A DNA stretch of 64,000 nt from a virus, in the IMG/VR virus record IMGVR_UViG_3300009163_000019; one strand, written 5' to 3'. The translations under genes were made by a program, and so were the position numbers. This document shows positions 3,616 through 33,772 of this stretch, one piece after another. Under the pieces are notes generated by a model. That model saw nothing but the letters and a program-made list of their open reading frames with translations, was not told where the DNA came from and searched no databases. Each line of letters starts with the position of its first letter. The stretch's first letter is position 1.

Positions 3616-3639
3616 GATATTTATATAAAAGATATAATA

Positions 3640-12664: not shown

Positions 12665-12781
12665 TTTTCAATCAGATATAACTAGTTGATTACCAATAAA
12701 AACTTTTGGAAAAGACTAAAATAAATTTTTTTATCTCGTAGAATTGTCATAATTTTACTATGAAACAAAACAATAAAGGTT
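12629..12781 (+). promoter_or_regulatory. Promoter module 3: three 25-bp units (first two overlap the upstream CDS end) plus promoter
   Basis: Units at 12629, 12654 and 12679; TAATTTTA at 12750. Confidence 0.78.
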
Positions 12782-13663
12782 ATGAATAATCAAATTATCC
12801 TCTCTGCTCTAGAATCTCAATTAGCTTCTAAACAATCTGAATTAGAATCACACGCAACATTAATATCAGAGCCCGCTTCAAAAGCACTTACTCAAAATGT
12901 TTTACAGTCTCTTCGTGAAAATGTATCTACTCTTATTCCTAATATTAAGATTAGCACAAGTCGTCTAGAGATCATGAGATTTTCAGAGCCAAATTCCTAC
13001 AGGTCTTCTGTTACAGTTTATTTAGAAAGCAGTTGGAGATCTGAATACAAGACTCTAGATATTGAAATGAATTGGTATGGATCAAGAGCGAATTTGAAAG
13101 ACGAGAATACACTTAATGATGTTCAAGTTTTTGGTGCAGTTGCGGCTAAGCTTGCATGGATCGAATATGAATTCATAAATAATTGGAGACCTGCTATCAT
13201 GGAAATTGATAAAATACCACAAAATATAGAAAATGAAATTCGCCAAATTAATTACAGTATTCAATCAGTAAAAAATCAAATGAGAAATGACGGAATTGAT
13301 AGCTATAAAAAAGAGGGATTTGTTTGTACTCTTACTACAACTTTGAATATATCAAGAGATTGGGAAGCGGAAGGAAATCCATACCAATTACAATCAAGTA
13401 TTCCTAATATAAAGCTATCAACAGGTCGAGGTAAGTGGGACTACGTTTACGCTAAGTCTTTCAAAGTTTTAAAAACTAATAAGTACAAGACTACTTTAGA
13501 AATAACTCAGAGCGATGATAGAGTTATAGAGCGCACAATTACGGCTAGATCTTTCGATCAATTCATTTCTGAAGTTTACGATTGGCAGACAGATAAAGCT
13601 AAAGTGCACAATGATAAAATTACAGAAAGATTCAATACTCAATATGCTAAACAATCTGCATAA
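12782..13663 (+). CDS. Hypothetical early protein with coiled-coil segments
   Basis: 293-aa ORF immediately after the promoter module. Confidence 0.6.
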   Translation: MNNQIILSALESQLASKQSELESHATLISEPASKALTQNVLQSLRENVSTLIPNIKISTSRLEIMRFSEPNSYRSSVTVYLESSWRSEYKTLDIEMNWYGSRANLKDENTLNDVQVFGAVAAKLAWIEYEFINNWRPAIMEIDKIPQNIENEIRQINYSIQSVKNQMRNDGIDSYKKEGFVCTLTTTLNISRDWEAEGNPYQLQSSIPNIKLSTGRGKWDYVYAKSFKVLKTNKYKTTLEITQSDDRVIERTITARSFDQFISEVYDWQTDKAKVHNDKITERFNTQYAKQSA

Positions 13664-13683
13664 TTAATTATAAAATAAAAGTT

Positions 13684-14070
13684 ATGAAAAAAATAAGTAG
13701 GAAGAAGTCCTTAGTGGACTACATGATAGAGAATGGAAACAATTTTAGGTATACCGACATGATAAAATATCTTGTTAAAATATGCAGAAAAAAAGAATAT
13801 GAGTGGCAATACGATAGAGGATTTTATGCAGCAAACTTTGGTTTTAGTGGATATATTACTCGAGGTTGTGGAACTTGCGGCGTCTATAAAAATCCTACAG
13901 GTAAGTGGAGTGCTAAGTATTATACAGAAGAAGAAATTACTTTGTATAAAATTAAAAGGCTTGTAACCCCGGCATTCAGTAAAGTATTAAATAGTTTTTC
14001 AGATAGACAAAAAAGAGATAGCGTAAGATTAGATCTTATTAAAAAATTAGCTAAACTAGTTAAAAAATAA
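13684..14070 (+). CDS. Hypothetical basic protein
   Basis: AAAATAAAAGTTATG leader. Confidence 0.5.
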   Translation: MKKISRKKSLVDYMIENGNNFRYTDMIKYLVKICRKKEYEWQYDRGFYAANFGFSGYITRGCGTCGVYKNPTGKWSAKYYTEEEITLYKIKRLVTPAFSKVLNSFSDRQKRDSVRLDLIKKLAKLVKK

Positions 14071-14073
14071 ATT

Positions 14074-14280
14074 ATGAATACTAAATATTGTAAAGTTTGT
14101 CAAAAAGAAATCCACCCTAAACGTGTAGCATTAGGATATGGAACTACATGCGTAGATCATAGTAGTGCAGAAAGATATACAGGTATTGTAGCTGCAGGAT
14201 CTAAGAATGACTTTGAAGTTCAGATCGTTAAAGATCCAGAGATCGGTAGGCAACTTGTTCAATTATCAAATATTTATTAA
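14074..14280 (+). CDS. TraR/DksA-like zinc-finger protein
   Basis: CKVCQKEIHPKRVALG..TCVDH. Confidence 0.65.
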   Translation: MNTKYCKVCQKEIHPKRVALGYGTTCVDHSSAERYTGIVAAGSKNDFEVQIVKDPEIGRQLVQLSNIY

Positions 14281-14289
14281 AAAAGTAAA

Positions 14290-14565
14290 ATGAATTATTT
14301 AAGCCCAGTAGAATATAGTAAAAAAATGAAAGCCTTAATGGAAGACGAGTCTACTCCTATGGAAGAGACAATTCCTGTAAAAGGAGAGAAGACTATGAAA
14401 GAAAGACTTTCAGAACTTTCTCCTGATGAGACAACTAAACTTCAAGAATATATTGCTAGTATCAAAGAGATCAAGAAAGCTATTCACGAATTAATAAATA
14501 AAGAATCTGTAGAAGAGAGCGGAGGCAATATGTCTTCAGGATTAGTACTTCCTGAAGAAGAATAA
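14290..14565 (+). CDS. Acidic hypothetical protein (putative late/virion)
   Basis: ATATTTAT motif upstream. Confidence 0.5.
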   Translation: MNYLSPVEYSKKMKALMEDESTPMEETIPVKGEKTMKERLSELSPDETTKLQEYIASIKEIKKAIHELINKESVEESGGNMSSGLVLPEEE

Positions 14566-14575
14566 AAATAAAATA

Positions 14576-14923
14576 ATGGTTATGCAAAATTTAGTTTCAG
14601 GAATATTTTTTGGAGTCATAGGACAAGTACTCTCTTTTTTTCAATTACAAGCAGGAATAAGATTCGGTTGGACTGAGAAATGGAGTTGGGCTCTAATGCT
14701 ACTTGGTTTTCCAATTAGCTGGTCTTTCATGAAAAGTGTACAATACTTCATCAATGCATTCGATGGAGAGATCTATCCAAGTAGGATATTAGGATTTGCT
14801 GTAGGTATCATTGTCTTTAGTATTATGGGATGGTTTCTATTTAGAGAAGGAATCACACCTAAAACAGGAGTGTGCTTACTATTAAGTTTGTGCATTATTC
14901 TTATTCAAATACTTTGGAAATAG
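14576..14923 (+). CDS. Four-TM membrane protein, SMR/DMT-like topology
   Basis: Four hydrophobic helices; FLFREGITPK. Confidence 0.6.
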   Translation: MVMQNLVSGIFFGVIGQVLSFFQLQAGIRFGWTEKWSWALMLLGFPISWSFMKSVQYFINAFDGEIYPSRILGFAVGIIVFSIMGWFLFREGITPKTGVCLLLSLCIILIQILWK

Positions 14924-21844: not shown

Positions 21845-22140
21845 CACGAGTAGAACAAAAAGGAAATAAGGAGAGACTTATACTAAAGGAATTAATTGAT
21901 AAAATGTTTGAAATAGCAGGCCATCCTCTAAAGTTTGAAGATGTAGAAGGTAGAACTGATAATTGGTTTCAACAATACACTATGACTGAAGCTCAAAATG
22001 AGGAGTGGCGAAATTGGGGTACTAAATTTCTAAGTAAGAAACGTCGTTTTGGTATGAAGTTAGCGGATCGTGAAATGAGAATGTTAGATTTGTATTGTGG
22101 ATTGAGTATATCGGATAGTAGATTTGCAAAAGAATTATGA
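21841..22140 (+). CDS. Hypothetical phage protein
   Basis: ATGA overlap. Confidence 0.55.
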   Translation: MTRVEQKGNKERLILKELIDKMFEIAGHPLKFEDVEGRTDNWFQQYTMTEAQNEEWRNWGTKFLSKKRRFGMKLADREMRMLDLYCGLSISDSRFAKEL

Positions 22141-22754
22141 TAATACACACAATGTGGATAGGATCCGAGATCCCTATTAAATATCATAGTAACTTAGATA
22201 AATTCAGGATGTTAAATCCCGGCTTTCAACACATGCATTGGGGAGAGAATGATATAATCAGTATTTTTAAATATTTTAATCTAATAGAATTATATAATTC
22301 AATGCCTAGTTTTATAACTAAATTCAATTTGGCAAAGTATGCAATACTAGATAAATTCGGTGGGATATTCACAGACTTAGATATACAGTGGAAAAAATCA
22401 TTTATTGAAATTATGAATGATCAGGAGTTTAATGATATAGATATATTATTAACACATCCAGTAGATACAGCACATTATTATATAAATGATCAAGCCGTTA
22501 ATCTTTTAGATGATCCATTTATTATAGCCAGACCAAACCTACTTAGCCAATGTCTTGACTTTAGATTTAAAAGAGAGTTAAGAATAGATCCCGAAACAAA
22601 AGCCGTCCATAAAGCAGAACCTATAGGTCCTTTCTTATTAACAGAGTGGATTTATGCTAATCAAATAAAGCATAGAGCATTTAGCCAAACTGCATTTTTA
22701 AGTCTAAATGGTTTTTACGGATACCACGAACAATTAGATCTATGGAATAAATAA
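22137..22754 (+). CDS. GT32-like DxD glycosyltransferase (Gly_transf_sug)
   Basis: IIHTMWIG, NPGFQHMHW, KYAIL..FGGIFTDLD, IGPFLLT. Confidence 0.85.
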   Translation: MIIHTMWIGSEIPIKYHSNLDKFRMLNPGFQHMHWGENDIISIFKYFNLIELYNSMPSFITKFNLAKYAILDKFGGIFTDLDIQWKKSFIEIMNDQEFNDIDILLTHPVDTAHYYINDQAVNLLDDPFIIARPNLLSQCLDFRFKRELRIDPETKAVHKAEPIGPFLLTEWIYANQIKHRAFSQTAFLSLNGFYGYHEQLDLWNK

Positions 22755-22780
22755 AAAGATATTTATATAAAAGAATCTCA

Positions 22781-23473
22781 ATGAAACTCAGTAAGATACT
22801 AGAAGGAGAATATGGAAATATATTATTTGGAGATAAAGATGATCCTGCAAAATTTGCTAAAATGCAAGGCGTGAAACCTGGCTCAGAACCAGATTTACCG
22901 GAAGAAAAAAAACTATTACTTCTATTAAAAAAATGGACAGTAAATCCTGCACATTCTATACAAGATCTTTATAAAATTAGAGGGAAGCTAAAATCATTAG
23001 CAAACGAATATCCAAAAATATTAAAACCTAGTACTCCAAATGGTACTATAATTTATAGAGGATTAACAAGTACAAATCCCCAAATAGAATCTCAAGTAAA
23101 AGCTTCAAATCCAGAAGATTGGATAAAAGCAGGTCGTTTATATATTTTAAAAACTCCCATAAAATATATTCCAAGAAGCGATATTCAGTCTTGGTCAACA
23201 AGGATGGAAACAGGCATGTACTCCTTTGGGCAAGGAGGAATGTTAATATCTAAGCAAAACGAAGAATACATGATGAATCAAGAAGCGCTATCTATACTAT
23301 ATCCATTGAGTGAAGACGAGATACTTCACTTTGGAAAAAACTATGATCAAAATGTATATTTTGCAGGTATTGACATATCAAATACAATAAGAAAATATAG
23401 TAAAAAATTAGCAAATGTAAAATCTGTATCTGACAGAAGTAAAGATTTGGATATGAAATCTATAATTAAATAA
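22781..23473 (+). CDS. Putative R-S-E clade ADP-ribosyltransferase with MKLSKILE leader
   Basis: IYRGL...QSWST...EDEIL motifs in the expected order; late-type motif upstream. Confidence 0.6.
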   Translation: MKLSKILEGEYGNILFGDKDDPAKFAKMQGVKPGSEPDLPEEKKLLLLLKKWTVNPAHSIQDLYKIRGKLKSLANEYPKILKPSTPNGTIIYRGLTSTNPQIESQVKASNPEDWIKAGRLYILKTPIKYIPRSDIQSWSTRMETGMYSFGQGGMLISKQNEEYMMNQEALSILYPLSEDEILHFGKNYDQNVYFAGIDISNTIRKYSKKLANVKSVSDRSKDLDMKSIIK

Positions 23474-23483
23474 AATAATCTCA

Positions 23484-24647
23484 ATGAAACTCAGTAAAAT
23501 ATTAGAATCTATCCTAGATGAATTAAACGTCCCAAAACCTGAGGATGCATATAAATTCTATAAAATAACAAAAAAGGATCTAGGATATGGTACCATGCAC
23601 ACTTATGTGTATGAAAATGTAAATGGAGATCTAATGGAAATCTCTAACATGGTAACAAAACATCCAAAAGAACCTGGTAAATCAATATACTTGGCTTTTA
23701 AGAAATATGAAGGACCTGGATCTGATGAGGAAGAATACGATAATGAAGAAGAAGAGGAAAGGAAATATTCTGAGAAGACAGGAGCCGGTGACCTGATTAA
23801 GGTATTGGCAACTGTGGTACAGTCTGTAAAGAATACCATGAATAAAGAGGGTGGTGAAAATAAGATATATGCCATAAAGTTTAGCCCATCAGATAATAAA
23901 AGGGCTAACATATATCTACACTATATAAAAACCCTGTTCCCTGACTTCAAAGAAGAGAAAGGAGTGGAGGCTAAATTTACAACCTTTGTTAATAAGAATT
24001 TTAAGCCAAAGGTAATCTCAGAAATAGGAGATGCATCAGCTGAAGGATATAGTCTGTCAAAACCAAATATCAAAGGACCAATAAATAAGGCATTAGACAA
24101 GATAAACAGTAGCGAAAGCAAAAGAAAATACGGAGGAGAGGAACCATTCAAAGTAAGATACACTGCCTCTGTAGGAACCAATAAATACCTTATAGACATA
24201 TCAGGAATGGTAAGTAATGTAACTCCAGGCACTGTCCCAAGATTTACTTATCTGTTTAATCCAGATGGAACTAGAAAACCAGGAAAGCTAGATATAAGAG
24301 TAGACTTTGATATGAAAAGGGATTCTAAAAAAGATGCCTTTACTTCAACAGAACTAAACGAACAGTACAAAGTATTATCCGCAGTATTTAATTCTGTTAT
24401 TGACTTTGTAAACCAAACAGAAGCCACTACACCAGTAGATCAGATACTTATGTATCCATCAAACGATAAAGGAACAGATACTGCAAGCAATTCTAAGAGA
24501 GGAAGATTCTATATGGTTTATATACAAAAGAATATCTCTAAACTTCCCGATCCAAGCATGTGGGACGTAAACCTTAACATGAGTGATAACTACATAGACT
24601 TAAGTAGAATCCCTCCAATGCCAACAAAGAAAACAAAGAAGAAATAA
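23484..24647 (+). CDS. MKLSKILE-leader protein with two copies of an unknown domain
   Basis: Internal VISEIGDAS; repeated KV..[TA]V....[VI]...PS...R...Y..YI pattern. Confidence 0.6.
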   Translation: MKLSKILESILDELNVPKPEDAYKFYKITKKDLGYGTMHTYVYENVNGDLMEISNMVTKHPKEPGKSIYLAFKKYEGPGSDEEEYDNEEEEERKYSEKTGAGDLIKVLATVVQSVKNTMNKEGGENKIYAIKFSPSDNKRANIYLHYIKTLFPDFKEEKGVEAKFTTFVNKNFKPKVISEIGDASAEGYSLSKPNIKGPINKALDKINSSESKRKYGGEEPFKVRYTASVGTNKYLIDISGMVSNVTPGTVPRFTYLFNPDGTRKPGKLDIRVDFDMKRDSKKDAFTSTELNEQYKVLSAVFNSVIDFVNQTEATTPVDQILMYPSNDKGTDTASNSKRGRFYMVYIQKNISKLPDPSMWDVNLNMSDNYIDLSRIPPMPTKKTKKK

Positions 24648-25130
24648 ATGAAACTAACCAAGATACTAAAGGAAGTAATATCAGAGATAGGAGACGCATC
24701 TAAAGAACCATACCCATTTAAAAAAGATATGGATGATATGGATGAAAGAAAATACACATTTTTTACAGACTCTGGATTTGAATATGAAGTTAGGGTAGAA
24801 ACTATAGGAGGAAGTCCTATGGAACCTGTAATAGCAAGGGTAGGATTTGGTGTAATAGATGGGACTGATGATATATCTTATGTGAAACAGACAGGAGAGA
24901 ATGATGTATATAAAATAATGGCAACAGTAACTGCAATAGTAAAGCAGGATCTTAAATCTAATGATGCTGATGTTATAGAGTTTTCTTCAAGTAAAAGAAG
25001 GAATAAGGGTGTGGATGAAGATCCAATGTCTAATGTAAGAACACAACTCTACTCAAGATATATTAAAGGCCAATTCCCTAATGCTGAGGTTCAATTTGAT
25101 GATTATGGAGATGTAAGGGTAAGATTATAA
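24648..25130 (+). CDS. MKLTKIL-leader protein with one copy of the same domain
   Basis: VISEIGDAS; KIMATV...R.QLY.RYIK..FP. Confidence 0.6.
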   Translation: MKLTKILKEVISEIGDASKEPYPFKKDMDDMDERKYTFFTDSGFEYEVRVETIGGSPMEPVIARVGFGVIDGTDDISYVKQTGENDVYKIMATVTAIVKQDLKSNDADVIEFSSSKRRNKGVDEDPMSNVRTQLYSRYIKGQFPNAEVQFDDYGDVRVRL

Positions 25131-25139
25131 TAAATAATA

Positions 25140-25715
25140 ATGAAACTAACTAAGATATTAGAAGGAATACTAAAAGAGAATCTACTCCAGTTTTATCATG
25201 GATCTACAGATAAGAATCTAGCAGGTAAGAATGGAATACATGTAGGATCTAAACTTGCAGCAACTCAAGCACTCCAAGCAAGAATAGGAGTTCCTGCTGA
25301 AGGTGAATGGGATGGTACAAGAGAATACGGTAAGACTAAACTAGCAGGAAAGAAAACCTTAGATAGAAGAGAAAAGGAATTAGGATATTTCTTAAAAACA
25401 GGATATAATACTCAATCTGAAGTACCTGAAGTACCTGAAGAAGATTATTACCCTGAAGACAGAGGTAAATTGCCAACTTATTCGGATGGTACACATATAA
25501 GTTTAGACTCTAAACCTATAATATTTCCTGTGAAGATCAAAGGACCGATGAATAATACCGTAAGAAACCCGAAGACAGATATGGCAGCAAACTCACTCAT
25601 GATGAGAGGACTAAGGAAAGGAAATGCCCGAAACGGATTCTATTATATAAATGATGGAGAAGATGAAGGATCAATATCTGCTGTAGTACCAAATAAAGAT
25701 TGGTTAAGTTATTAA
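25140..25715 (+). CDS. Putative ADP-ribosyltransferase-like protein (ART-PolyVal-like) with MKLTKILE leader
   Basis: FYHGS...GIHVGS..AA...GFYYIN.GED.GS.S.VV. Confidence 0.55.
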   Translation: MKLTKILEGILKENLLQFYHGSTDKNLAGKNGIHVGSKLAATQALQARIGVPAEGEWDGTREYGKTKLAGKKTLDRREKELGYFLKTGYNTQSEVPEVPEEDYYPEDRGKLPTYSDGTHISLDSKPIIFPVKIKGPMNNTVRNPKTDMAANSLMMRGLRKGNARNGFYYINDGEDEGSISAVVPNKDWLSY

Positions 25716-25957
25716 AACGACTGGCTCAAGAAATAATAAAGGATATAATAAACACCAGAATGATAGATAAGAATATGGGTAATAAGAAAACCTCAACCCC
25801 TAATACTAATATAGAAAGTAAACCATTAACCCCAAAGGATAGAGAAGCCATAAGCCTGTGGATACTAAAGGCCAAACAAGACAAGGCACAAAGCTGGCTC
25901 GGTAAATGGTATTGGCAAATACGAATAGATAAGGAAAAGAATAAGAAGCAGGGCTAG
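25700..25957 (+). CDS. Hypothetical basic protein (start uncertain)
   Basis: ORF ending in a terminator hairpin. Confidence 0.4.
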   Translation: MVKLLKRLAQEIIKDIINTRMIDKNMGNKKTSTPNTNIESKPLTPKDREAISLWILKAKQDKAQSWLGKWYWQIRIDKEKNKKQG

Positions 25958-25972
25958 AAGGATCTAGCCTTT
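25952..25972 (+). terminator. Intrinsic terminator
   Basis: GGCTAGA-AGGA-TCTAGCC-TTT. Confidence 0.55.
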
Positions 25973-26135: not shown

Positions 26136-26281
26136 TAAGTGATTGATTATCAACGGGTTAGGAATTATAAATAAAGATATACATAACTGATTGGTTACCA
26201 ATAAAAACTTTCAAAAATAGTTACTCTAAAATTTTTTTATCTGACGGATTTGTCTTAATTTTACTATGTAACAAATCAATA
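26136..26281 (+). promoter_or_regulatory. Promoter module 4: two palindromic units plus promoter
   Basis: Units at 26136 and 26184; TAATTTTA at 26256. Confidence 0.72.
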
Positions 26282-26825: not shown

Positions 26826-26917
26826 AAGTGTGGCACTTAGAAGATCGGCAATAACAGGTTCAAAAGATTGTCTTATATTTACTATATAACAATTAGCAAT
26901 AAACAAAACAAACAGTT

Positions 26918-27219: not shown

Positions 27220-27372
27220 ATAACCCATTGATACTCAATACTTTATAACCCATTGATTTCCAATGCTTTATAACTAGTTGATTGCCAATAAAAACTTTTG
27301 GAAAACACTAAAATAAATTTTTTTATGTCACCGGAATGGCTTAATTTTACTATATAACAAATCAATAACAGT
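27220..27372 (+). promoter_or_regulatory. Promoter module 5: three 25-bp units plus promoter
   Basis: Units at 27221, 27246 and 27271; TAATTTTA at 27342. Confidence 0.82.
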
Positions 27373-33469: not shown

Positions 33470-33772
33470 TTAACTATCCCATCTGATAACAAAAGTCATA
33501 TCTGTATTTTGTGGGATAGGATATGGCCTAGATAATTTTCCTACTATTAATAATTCATCTTGTGCATTATATAAGCCAACAGTAGTTGTATAAGGATGAA
33601 AATCAGATCCTGTTACTGCGTCTATATAAGATCCTGAGCTGCCTGCTTTATTTGCACTAGGATTTAAAGTATAGTTAAAATCATTTTCATTTATTTGGCA
33701 TCTTACTTCATTTTGATAAATGGTAGATTCAGCTACAAAAGATAGTGTATATGGTACTGGTGGGAATGGCAT
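33470..33772 (-). CDS. Baseplate/tail structural protein, stand-alone C-terminal domain
   Basis: FNYTLNPS...TTVGLYN..DELL.VGKLS.P...FVIRWD, paralogous to the C-terminus of 46704..47735. Confidence 0.7.
   Translation of the reverse strand: MPFPPVPYTLSFVAESTIYQNEVRCQINENDFNYTLNPSANKAGSSGSYIDAVTGSDFHPYTTTVGLYNAQDELLIVGKLSRPYPIPQNTDMTFVIRWDS

Follow-up and report, generated by a model that had tools for sequence, protein, structure and literature searches.

The principle of loading proteins into the phage head for delivery into the host is already known from the capsid-targeting sequence (CTS) of bacteriophage T4, from T4 Alt and from the ADP-ribosyltransferases (ARTs) of polyvalent proteins. 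The T4 CTS reads MKTYQEFIAE (PMC8442874), residues 4 and 7 directing the targeting and residues 8 and 10 the processing by gp21 at L/I-X-E (PMC9026906). The ejection (E) proteins of phages phiKZ and SPN3US are processed by gp21-like proteases after S/A-X-E (PMC9026906, PMC7411985). Polyvalent proteins are predicted to be packaged in the head and injected (PMC5512222, PMC9503650), and head-packaged ARTs are held to be common among myoviruses (PMC9503650). Here we describe a cassette of four adjacent genes, g1 to g4, which begin with a common short leader and lie on the plus strand of a 64-kb stretch of viral DNA (IMG/VR record IMGVR_UViG_3300009163_000019; the whole stretch, analyzed as a single strand, is referred to as the window). 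We consider it moderately probable that targeting to the capsid and proteolytic clipping in the manner of T4 load g1, g4 and the proteins of family DUF6934 into the head for injection, and that the DNA encoding the leader serves as a recombination joint.

The Gene Cassette and its Common Leader

The cassette consists of the following genes:

22781-23473, plus strand: g1, 230 amino acids (aa), leader MKLSKILE and a body predicted to have the R-S-ExE ADP-ribosyltransferase fold; no Pfam family
23484-24647, plus strand: g2, 387 aa, leader and two tandem DUF6934-like units
24648-25130, plus strand: g3, 160 aa, leader MKLTKILKEVISE and a DUF6934 body starting IGDASKEPY
25140-25715, plus strand: g4, 191 aa, leader MKLTKILEGILKE and a body predicted to have an ART fold (YHG / GIH / Y.N..ED); no Pfam family

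The gaps between successive genes are 10, 0 and 9 nucleotides (nt). As noticed in a preliminary description of this DNA, the four proteins have in common an MKL(S/T)KIL(E/K) leader, their starts being MKLSKILEG, MKLSKILES, MKLTKILKE and MKLTKILEG. A degenerate DNA pattern of the leader has four matches in the 64 kb, and these are the four starts only (0.02 matches expected). Behind the leader the three body types recognized in that description were found again: g2 and g3 are both DUF6934 proteins, while g1 and g4 are unrelated to those and to one another. The first hydrophobic-x-E in the leaders is I-L-E8 in g1, g2 and g4 and L-K-E9 in g3. The last three proteins have a second one at residues 11-13 (L-D-E13 in g2, I-S-E13 in g3 and L-K-E13 in g4), and beyond it the similarity between the genes stops. 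In the predicted structures the leader is either disordered (g1) or a separate helix (g4, residues 3-14). A secretion signal was also considered as the role of the leader and rejected, because the leader has no hydrophobic core.

The leader agrees with the CTS/gp21 pattern of T4, as had been suggested: in its widespread 10-residue form, M-I-K-L-K-D-I-L-x-E, positions 4, 7 and 8 are hydrophobic and position 10 is Glu, which is also the layout of MKTYQEFIAE (PMC9026906, PMC8442874). A common start could also arise without any targeting, as a by-product of tandem duplication or recombination or as part of the translation-initiation region, the proteins then acting in the infected cell and being left out of the virion. 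Genes g1 and g2 do have 46 nt in common at 89% identity, 22 nt of upstream DNA included; near-identical DNA around the start, earlier ascribed to all four genes, holds for this pair and not for the others. Recombination at leader-derived repeats clearly occurs (see below), and low-GC phages often have AAA as the second codon and starts rich in A. However, the leader copies vary at synonymous sites (CTC/CTA, AAG/AAA, CTA/TTA), so that it is the peptide rather than the DNA that is conserved. The same peptide pattern is moreover found on three unrelated families across hundreds of diverged metagenomic proteins with bodies only 30-60% identical, and lineages swap the whole leader yet keep the hydrophobic-x-E end at the same junction. 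An origin of the leader as a mere by-product is therefore judged unlikely.

The occurrence of the leader was assessed using a strict pattern (M, 0-2 residues, K/R, a hydrophobic residue, two residues, two hydrophobic residues, 0-1 residue, E). It is present in 62 of the 157 g1-family proteins (39%), 46 of the 54 g3-family proteins (85%) and 12 of the 120 g4-family proteins, and the background is 20 of 1241 open reading frames (ORFs) in the window and the related loci (1.6%), nearly all 20 being cassette genes. The leader is thus a separable module, as proposed earlier, which is present on unrelated families in other uncultured phages. Some of these have a common leader of their own. At L008/L009 the version MKL+D/EIL..E is found on four proteins around a g4 homolog, and a further common leader surrounds the g4 homolog at L013. 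At L015, MKRLxEIIxE heads a g4 homolog, a protein with a weak GNAT match and an ART recognized by Pfam as ADPrib_exo_Tox (E 1.5e-14). The form MIKLKDIL.E heads g1 homologs as well as unrelated proteins of 154, 260 and 332 aa. Two proteins, of 332 aa (L059:12139-13134) and 260 aa (L071:811-1590), continue after an MIKLK.IL.E leader with WHFTS or LYHFT motifs; neither has a Pfam match, and by these motifs they may represent further ART-like cargo families.

The g1 Protein

An exhaustive profile search collected 369 cluster representatives of the g1 family at E ≤ 1e-3. The YRG, SWS and ExE motifs reported for g1 correspond to Y92-R93-G94, S137-W138-S139 and E178-x-E180, and they are conserved: across 55 diverged sequences R93 and E180 are invariant, and Y92, G94, Q136, S137, W138, E178, H183 and G185 are at least 90% conserved. 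The AlphaFold (AF2) model has a mean predicted local distance difference test score (pLDDT) of 92.6, with the leader (residues 1-7) below 50 and disordered. In this model beta1 (90-95) has the Arg at its end, beta2 (135-139) carries the Ser motif, and ExE immediately precedes beta5 (180-184), which is the canonical R-S-ExE layout.

When the model was compared with 48,161 chains using VIA-align, the top 50 matches were nearly all ARTs, with R-S-E members leading: Vis (Z 5.4, 135 residues aligned), ART-ARH toxin, ART2.2, HopU1, Tre1, C3 and VIP2. The scores of this list run from Z 5.4 to 4.0, with 125-146 residues aligned. Foldseek gave weak matches only, to cholera toxin A1, TreX, SpvB, ExoS and C3. 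At the sequence level, g1 has no Pfam match at E ≤ 1, ADPrib_exo_Tox (PF03496) and Alt-VIP2 included, and no PHROGs match at E ≤ 0.1, and hhalign against a genuine ADPrib_exo_Tox member was empty. The Z-scores are low, and the case for g1 rests on the uniform ART list and the invariant triad. By its predicted fold, which is ART-like as anticipated, and by its Arg, Ser and ExE motifs g1 belongs to the R-S-E clade, and it is most likely an active R-S-ExE mono-ADP-ribosyltransferase.

The g4 Protein

For g4 more than 280 homologs were found. The body is conserved from F18 onwards at 55-89% identity, and the N-terminal 15-30 residues are wholly replaced between lineages. The motifs described for this protein are conserved as Y19-H20-G21, G32-I33-H34 and Y169..N171..E174-D175, and the residues invariant in the family include H20, G21, G32, H34, G36, N171 and D175. 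The AF2 model (pLDDT 87) again resembles ARTs, as the preliminary description had predicted. Its VIA-align matches (Z 5.0-3, spanning model residues 9-191) are nearly all of the ART fold: RES, AcrIF11, NatT, ParT, MbcT, diphtheria toxin and the catalytic domains of PARP. As these Z-scores are low, it is at the level of the fold only that the model points to the H-type clade of ARTs, in which beta1 carries a His and the last core strand is preceded by an acidic residue.

Are the ART-like proteins enzymes? The cassette proteins could be packaged and yet be mainly structural, that is, they could belong to the head interior or core or condense the DNA, as IPII and IPIII of T4 do, with ART-like folds that are catalytically dead. 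The low structural Z-scores would suit such a role, DUF6934 is a family without known activity, and the internal proteins of T4 are abundant, small and highly diverse (PMC3012670). This possibility is nevertheless very unlikely in our opinion, since the 55 diverged sequences show little or no variation in the full R-S-ExE set of g1, and H20, H34, N171 and D175 of g4 are invariant in the 30 sequences over which their conservation was taken. Such conservation is typical of active enzymes.

The g4 protein had been called ART-PolyVal-like. This holds for fold and motifs: among viral models (BFVD) the weak top matches are repeatedly ART-PolyVal-like proteins and giant proteins of uncultured phages, and a protein atlas comparison gave the same weak ART-PolyVal lead. 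It does not hold for membership in that family. There is no Pfam match at E ≤ 1, ART-PolyVal (PF18760) included, and none in PHROGs at E ≤ 0.1. In the giant protein of L014, a g4-like domain (approximately residues 265-431) and a genuine ART-PolyVal domain (955-1077) are distinct and lie approximately 500 residues apart. When the g4 alignment was compared with ART-PolyVal (one and three sequences) using hhalign, only the VYHGS stretch was aligned, at a probability of 1%. The g4 proteins therefore form a separate ART-fold family, which is a neighbor of ART-PolyVal and not a member of it. Based on the motifs and the model, we propose that g4 is an NAD-using ART-fold enzyme of an H-H-(E/D) type, whose near neighbors are the ARTs of polyvalent proteins.

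Two further observations concern this family. The g4 model also weakly matches a domain of the cyanophage A4 pre-ejectosome (PDB 9k3a_B, residues 1418-1598; Z 3.5, 103 residues aligned), and to judge from this match a module of similar ART-like kind may be present in an ejection protein of solved structure. In addition, the g4 homologs at L016, L018-L020, L023, L024 and L027 start with MPKDALGHGSNP(R/Q)G, a quite different conserved N-terminus, which may be a different loading signal. In the one larger record of the MPKDALGHGSNP lineage that was searched (G016, 84 kb, 80% complete), there was no match to the S77 protease.

The DUF6934 Proteins and Variation of the Cassette

The g3 protein matches Pfam DUF6934 (PF22028) with 29.6 bits (E 7.9e-7), above the cut-off of 27, and most of its homologs bear a precomputed PF22028 annotation. 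The g2 protein falls just below the same cut-off with 26.6 bits (E 6.5e-6). In a BLASTP comparison with g3, the N-terminal half of g2 was covered and a second match was found at VISEIGDAS (g2 residues 176-193). Judged from these alignments, g2 is a tandem fusion of two g3-like units, of which the second starts with VISEIGDAS. The corresponding DNA forms a direct repeat (D4) of 26 nt, the copies being 88% identical and spaced by 663 nt:

24012-24037, plus strand: leader-derived repeat, internal copy (VISEIGDAS), joining the two g2 units; candidate I-S-E cut site
24675-24700, plus strand: leader-derived repeat, second copy (VISEIGDAS), inside the g3 leader

Throughout the g3 family (n=54) the body always starts with IGDAS(K/R)(E/Q)PY, and it is preceded by at least three different leaders, each ending in hydrophobic-x-E directly before IGDAS. 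A search with a local DUF6934 hidden Markov model found members in the closest relatives only. In the window, in L001 and in L002, a gene for a DUF6934 protein and one for a g4-type protein lie side by side. Elsewhere, a 333-aa protein of a 482-kb phage (L013:9521-10519; G007) consists of an N-terminal DUF6934 domain and a C-terminal g4-type ART-fold domain. This fusion suggests that DUF6934 may be the partner of that ART, and the sequences hint at a functional pair.

The content of the cassette differs between close relatives, as shown by a comparison of G001, L001 and L002. L001 has a DUF6934 variant and g4, and L002 has a g2 variant and g4. The cassette is also contained in the nearest record, a fragment of 16.8 kb (G001); here g1 is present and g4 is absent. 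Its gene of 327 aa combines the N-terminal half of g2 with the body of g3; the two parts meet at V(M/I)SEIGDAS and are 97-98% identical to their counterparts in the window. Relative to the window exactly 663 nt are missing, namely those that separate the two VISEIGDAS repeats. Recombination at the leader, proposed from the window itself, is thereby documented, the junction falling exactly on a leader-derived repeat. Following the 327-aa gene there are four leaderless small genes and then a different DUF6934 variant with a leader. These leaderless genes, of 80, 188, 70 and 73 aa, lie between DUF6934 genes (L036 (G001), 13509-14792), and two of them resemble small genes found elsewhere in L001 and L002 (the ...AMEKEQRIKDYNAGYDDAQCNHVND type).

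Genomic Setting and Transcription Signals

The window has a GC content of approximately 30%. In a blastn search with the region from 21 to 27 kb, the sole match to a cultured phage was 127 nt at 74% in Flavobacterium phage vB_FspM_immuto. The source is an uncultured Flavobacterium-type myovirus, and its host is probably a member of the Bacteroidota. The minus-strand half of the window encodes baseplate wedge-type proteins and glycosylation genes. Directly 5' of the cassette, a gene at 22137-22754 encodes a DXD glycosyltransferase (Pfam Gly_transf_sug, E 1.9e-10), and a similar gene occupies the same place in G001.

Three further features surround the four genes:

22758-22773, plus strand: promoter-like motif GATATTTATATAAAAG (core ATATTTAT), ending 8 nt 5' of the g1 start
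25760-25957, plus strand: small leaderless ORF of 65 aa between g4 and the terminator; kept 3' of the cassette in G001
25950-25971, plus strand: terminator-like hairpin, 4 of its 9 stem pairs being GC, with a T-rich tail behind it

The genes g1 to g4 would form a single transcription unit, extending from the promoter-like motif at 22758 to the hairpin at 25950, which by its sequence probably ends the unit. The 16-mer GATATTTATATAAAAG had been described as standing ahead of the cassette genes. It is exact before g1 only, with a degenerate version before g2. The window has two more exact copies, at 3616 and 21184, and all three are on the plus strand. The core ATATTTAT occurs in sense orientation in 11 of the 50 upstream 40-nt segments, and its reverse complement in none of the 50. 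It ranks first among 56 8-mers of the same composition, for which the mean is 1.2. Four of the 11 segments precede minus-strand genes of the virion module, starting at 33772, 48406, 56847 and 60596. Since the core stands ahead of both the cassette and virion-module genes, a common class of phage promoter is plausible, and this class would probably be late in timing. For the label 'late', given to the cassette in the preliminary description, this upstream motif common to virion genes is the sole basis. A scan for the sigma-70 consensus gave no more matches than expected from shuffled sequence. A second class of upstream motif, TTGTCTTAATTTTACTATnTAACAAA, was found at 12740-12781, 26240-26281, 26876-26917 and 27331-27372. 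It precedes several plus-strand genes just 3' of the cassette and at 12.7 kb, and is probably another promoter class.

The Prohead Protease and the Proposed Mechanism

Genes for Peptidase_S77 were found in 7 of 15 related records with g1 or g4 homologs, among them each of the three linear records that are 90% complete or more, and in one 27-kb fragment such a gene lies approximately 10 kb from a g1 homolog. The g1 and g4 domains also recur in polyvalent proteins of 860-3400 aa, beside ART-PolyVal, GNAT and SprT. The cassette proteins themselves are encoded by separate genes of 160-387 aa and are thus not polyvalent proteins; only their domains recur there.

These findings bear on whether the leader has a purpose other than packaging. 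It could be an amphipathic helix serving as a docking tag for a complex of the phage or the host, as a membrane or chaperone handle or as a degron by which effector activity is timed, on proteins that are produced in the course of infection and act as intracellular effectors like ModA and ModB of T4. The helix at residues 3-14 of the g4 model would be in line with this, T4 also has ARTs that are not packaged (PMC9503650), and the cassette lies outside the virion module. The pattern, however, fits the CTS/gp21 layout position by position (PMC9026906), the domains of the bodies recur in polyvalent, virion-associated proteins, relatives encode the S77 protease, and the upstream motif is common to virion genes. 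The leader is also too short and too polar for a Sec or lipoprotein signal. We therefore consider a purpose other than packaging rather unlikely.

According to the mechanism that we propose, the leader would be a lineage-specific version of the T4 CTS. Its 8-13 amphipathic residues (MKL-S/T-K-I-L-E/K) would dock the proteins to the scaffolding core of the prohead, where a gp21-type (Peptidase_S77) prohead protease would cut after Glu in I-L-E, L-K-E or I-S-E and leave the mature bodies inside the head. The same protease would probably also split g2 at the internal junction between I-S-E and IGDAS. The mature bodies would exit with the DNA at infection; g1 would play the role of T4 Alt, the DUF6934 proteins would be further cargo, possibly partners of g4, and the enzymes among them would act on their targets in the host. 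The leader and its DNA would at the same time be the recombination joints at which related phages swap cargo. All four proteins are probably injected with the DNA, which would extend the biology known from T4.

Several observations weigh against such packaging and injection of ARTs. With respect to the leader, (L/I)-x-E is short and common by chance, and only 10% of the g4 homologs have the strict pattern. No other ORF of G004 or G005 agrees with the leader of the g4 homolog at 5/10 residues or more, and nearby ORFs have only looser N-termini of the F/L-x-E type. As to the setting, a search for a prohead protease within the 64-kb window gave no match, the head genes of the phage probably lying outside it, and the cassette is surrounded by small, early-looking plus-strand genes. 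With respect to the proteins, tblastn found no match to g1, g2 or g4 in 50,697 records of cultured phages, three alignments used as profiles on PDB sequences returned chance matches only, and no sequence-level link to known ARTs was found by Pfam, hhalign or PDB profile searches. The structural matches are weak as well (VIA Z ≤ 5.4, Foldseek E ≥ 0.01; models without a true match typically reach a best Z of 7-8), and Foldseek against PDB found nothing at E ≤ 0.001 for the g1 or g4 model. The case for g1 and g4 as ARTs rests on the uniform match lists and the motifs.

Implications

Should the tag function as it does in T4, sequence by itself would suffice to list the proteins injected by large uncultured phages at the onset of infection, the stage which decides host take-over and anti-defence. 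Two widespread ART-fold families without a Pfam model, of more than 280 and more than 369 clusters, together with DUF6934, would then become candidate injected effectors, and single-gene cargo and polyvalent proteins would be linked as two forms of one strategy. In addition, a natural tag would be at hand by which the capsids of Bacteroidota phages could be filled with foreign proteins.

A more general reading, which we offer tentatively and with some doubt, is that M(I)KL.(D/K)IL.E is a capsid-loading address used across uncultured T4-like lineages, its cargo existing in two interconverting formats, tagged genes and polyvalent domains. The injected repertoire, including the two uncatalogued ART-fold families and DUF6934, would in that case be readable from sequence, and recombination at the DNA encoding the leader would convert one format into the other. 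The new elements reported here are this tag and its breadth, the two uncatalogued ART-fold families, DUF6934 as candidate cargo with its link to g4, and a documented recombination event at the tag.

Comparison with Known Systems

Similarly to the CTS of the T4 internal proteins, the leader is a short N-terminal tag on unrelated small proteins, with hydrophobic residues at the targeting positions and an (L/I)-x-E end, and the tagged genes are adjacent and form a set that varies between relatives (PMC3012670, PMC9026906, PMC8442874). The tag differs from that of T4 in sequence and is one residue shorter (MKL.KIL.E), and a second site is found at residue 13 in g2-g4. The cargo would consist of putative enzymes and DUF6934 proteins, whereas that of T4 consists of small basic internal proteins. 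The host is probably a member of the Bacteroidota.

T4 Alt is a protein of approximately 680 aa, and g1 with its 230 aa is far shorter. Alt is a head-packaged, injected R-S-E ART, and g1 resembles it in having a predicted R-S-ExE fold behind a cleavable-looking leader and in belonging to a myovirus whose relatives carry the S77 protease. There is, however, no sequence similarity between g1 and Alt/VIP2. With the mono-ARTs of the C3 / VIP2 / Vis / ART2.2 type, g1 has in common the fold and the order of the motifs on the strands, but the similarity is limited to Z 4-5.4 and 10-14% identity, and the Ser motif is Q-S-W-S/T and not S-T-S.

Polyvalent proteins (Iyer et al. 2017, PMC5512222) contain the body domains of both g1 and g4 as modules; g4 in addition has the YHGS and N-(E/D)-G motifs, and its weak structural neighbors are ART-PolyVal domains. 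The proteins of the cassette are, however, encoded by small separate genes, each with a leader, instead of one giant polypeptide. Finally, the E proteins of phiKZ and SPN3US likewise reside inside the head, where a diverged S77 protease cuts many such proteins after Glu before they are ejected. We suggest a comparable course for g1-g4, but the E proteins do not start with a short tag in common, and they are cleaved at a different motif.

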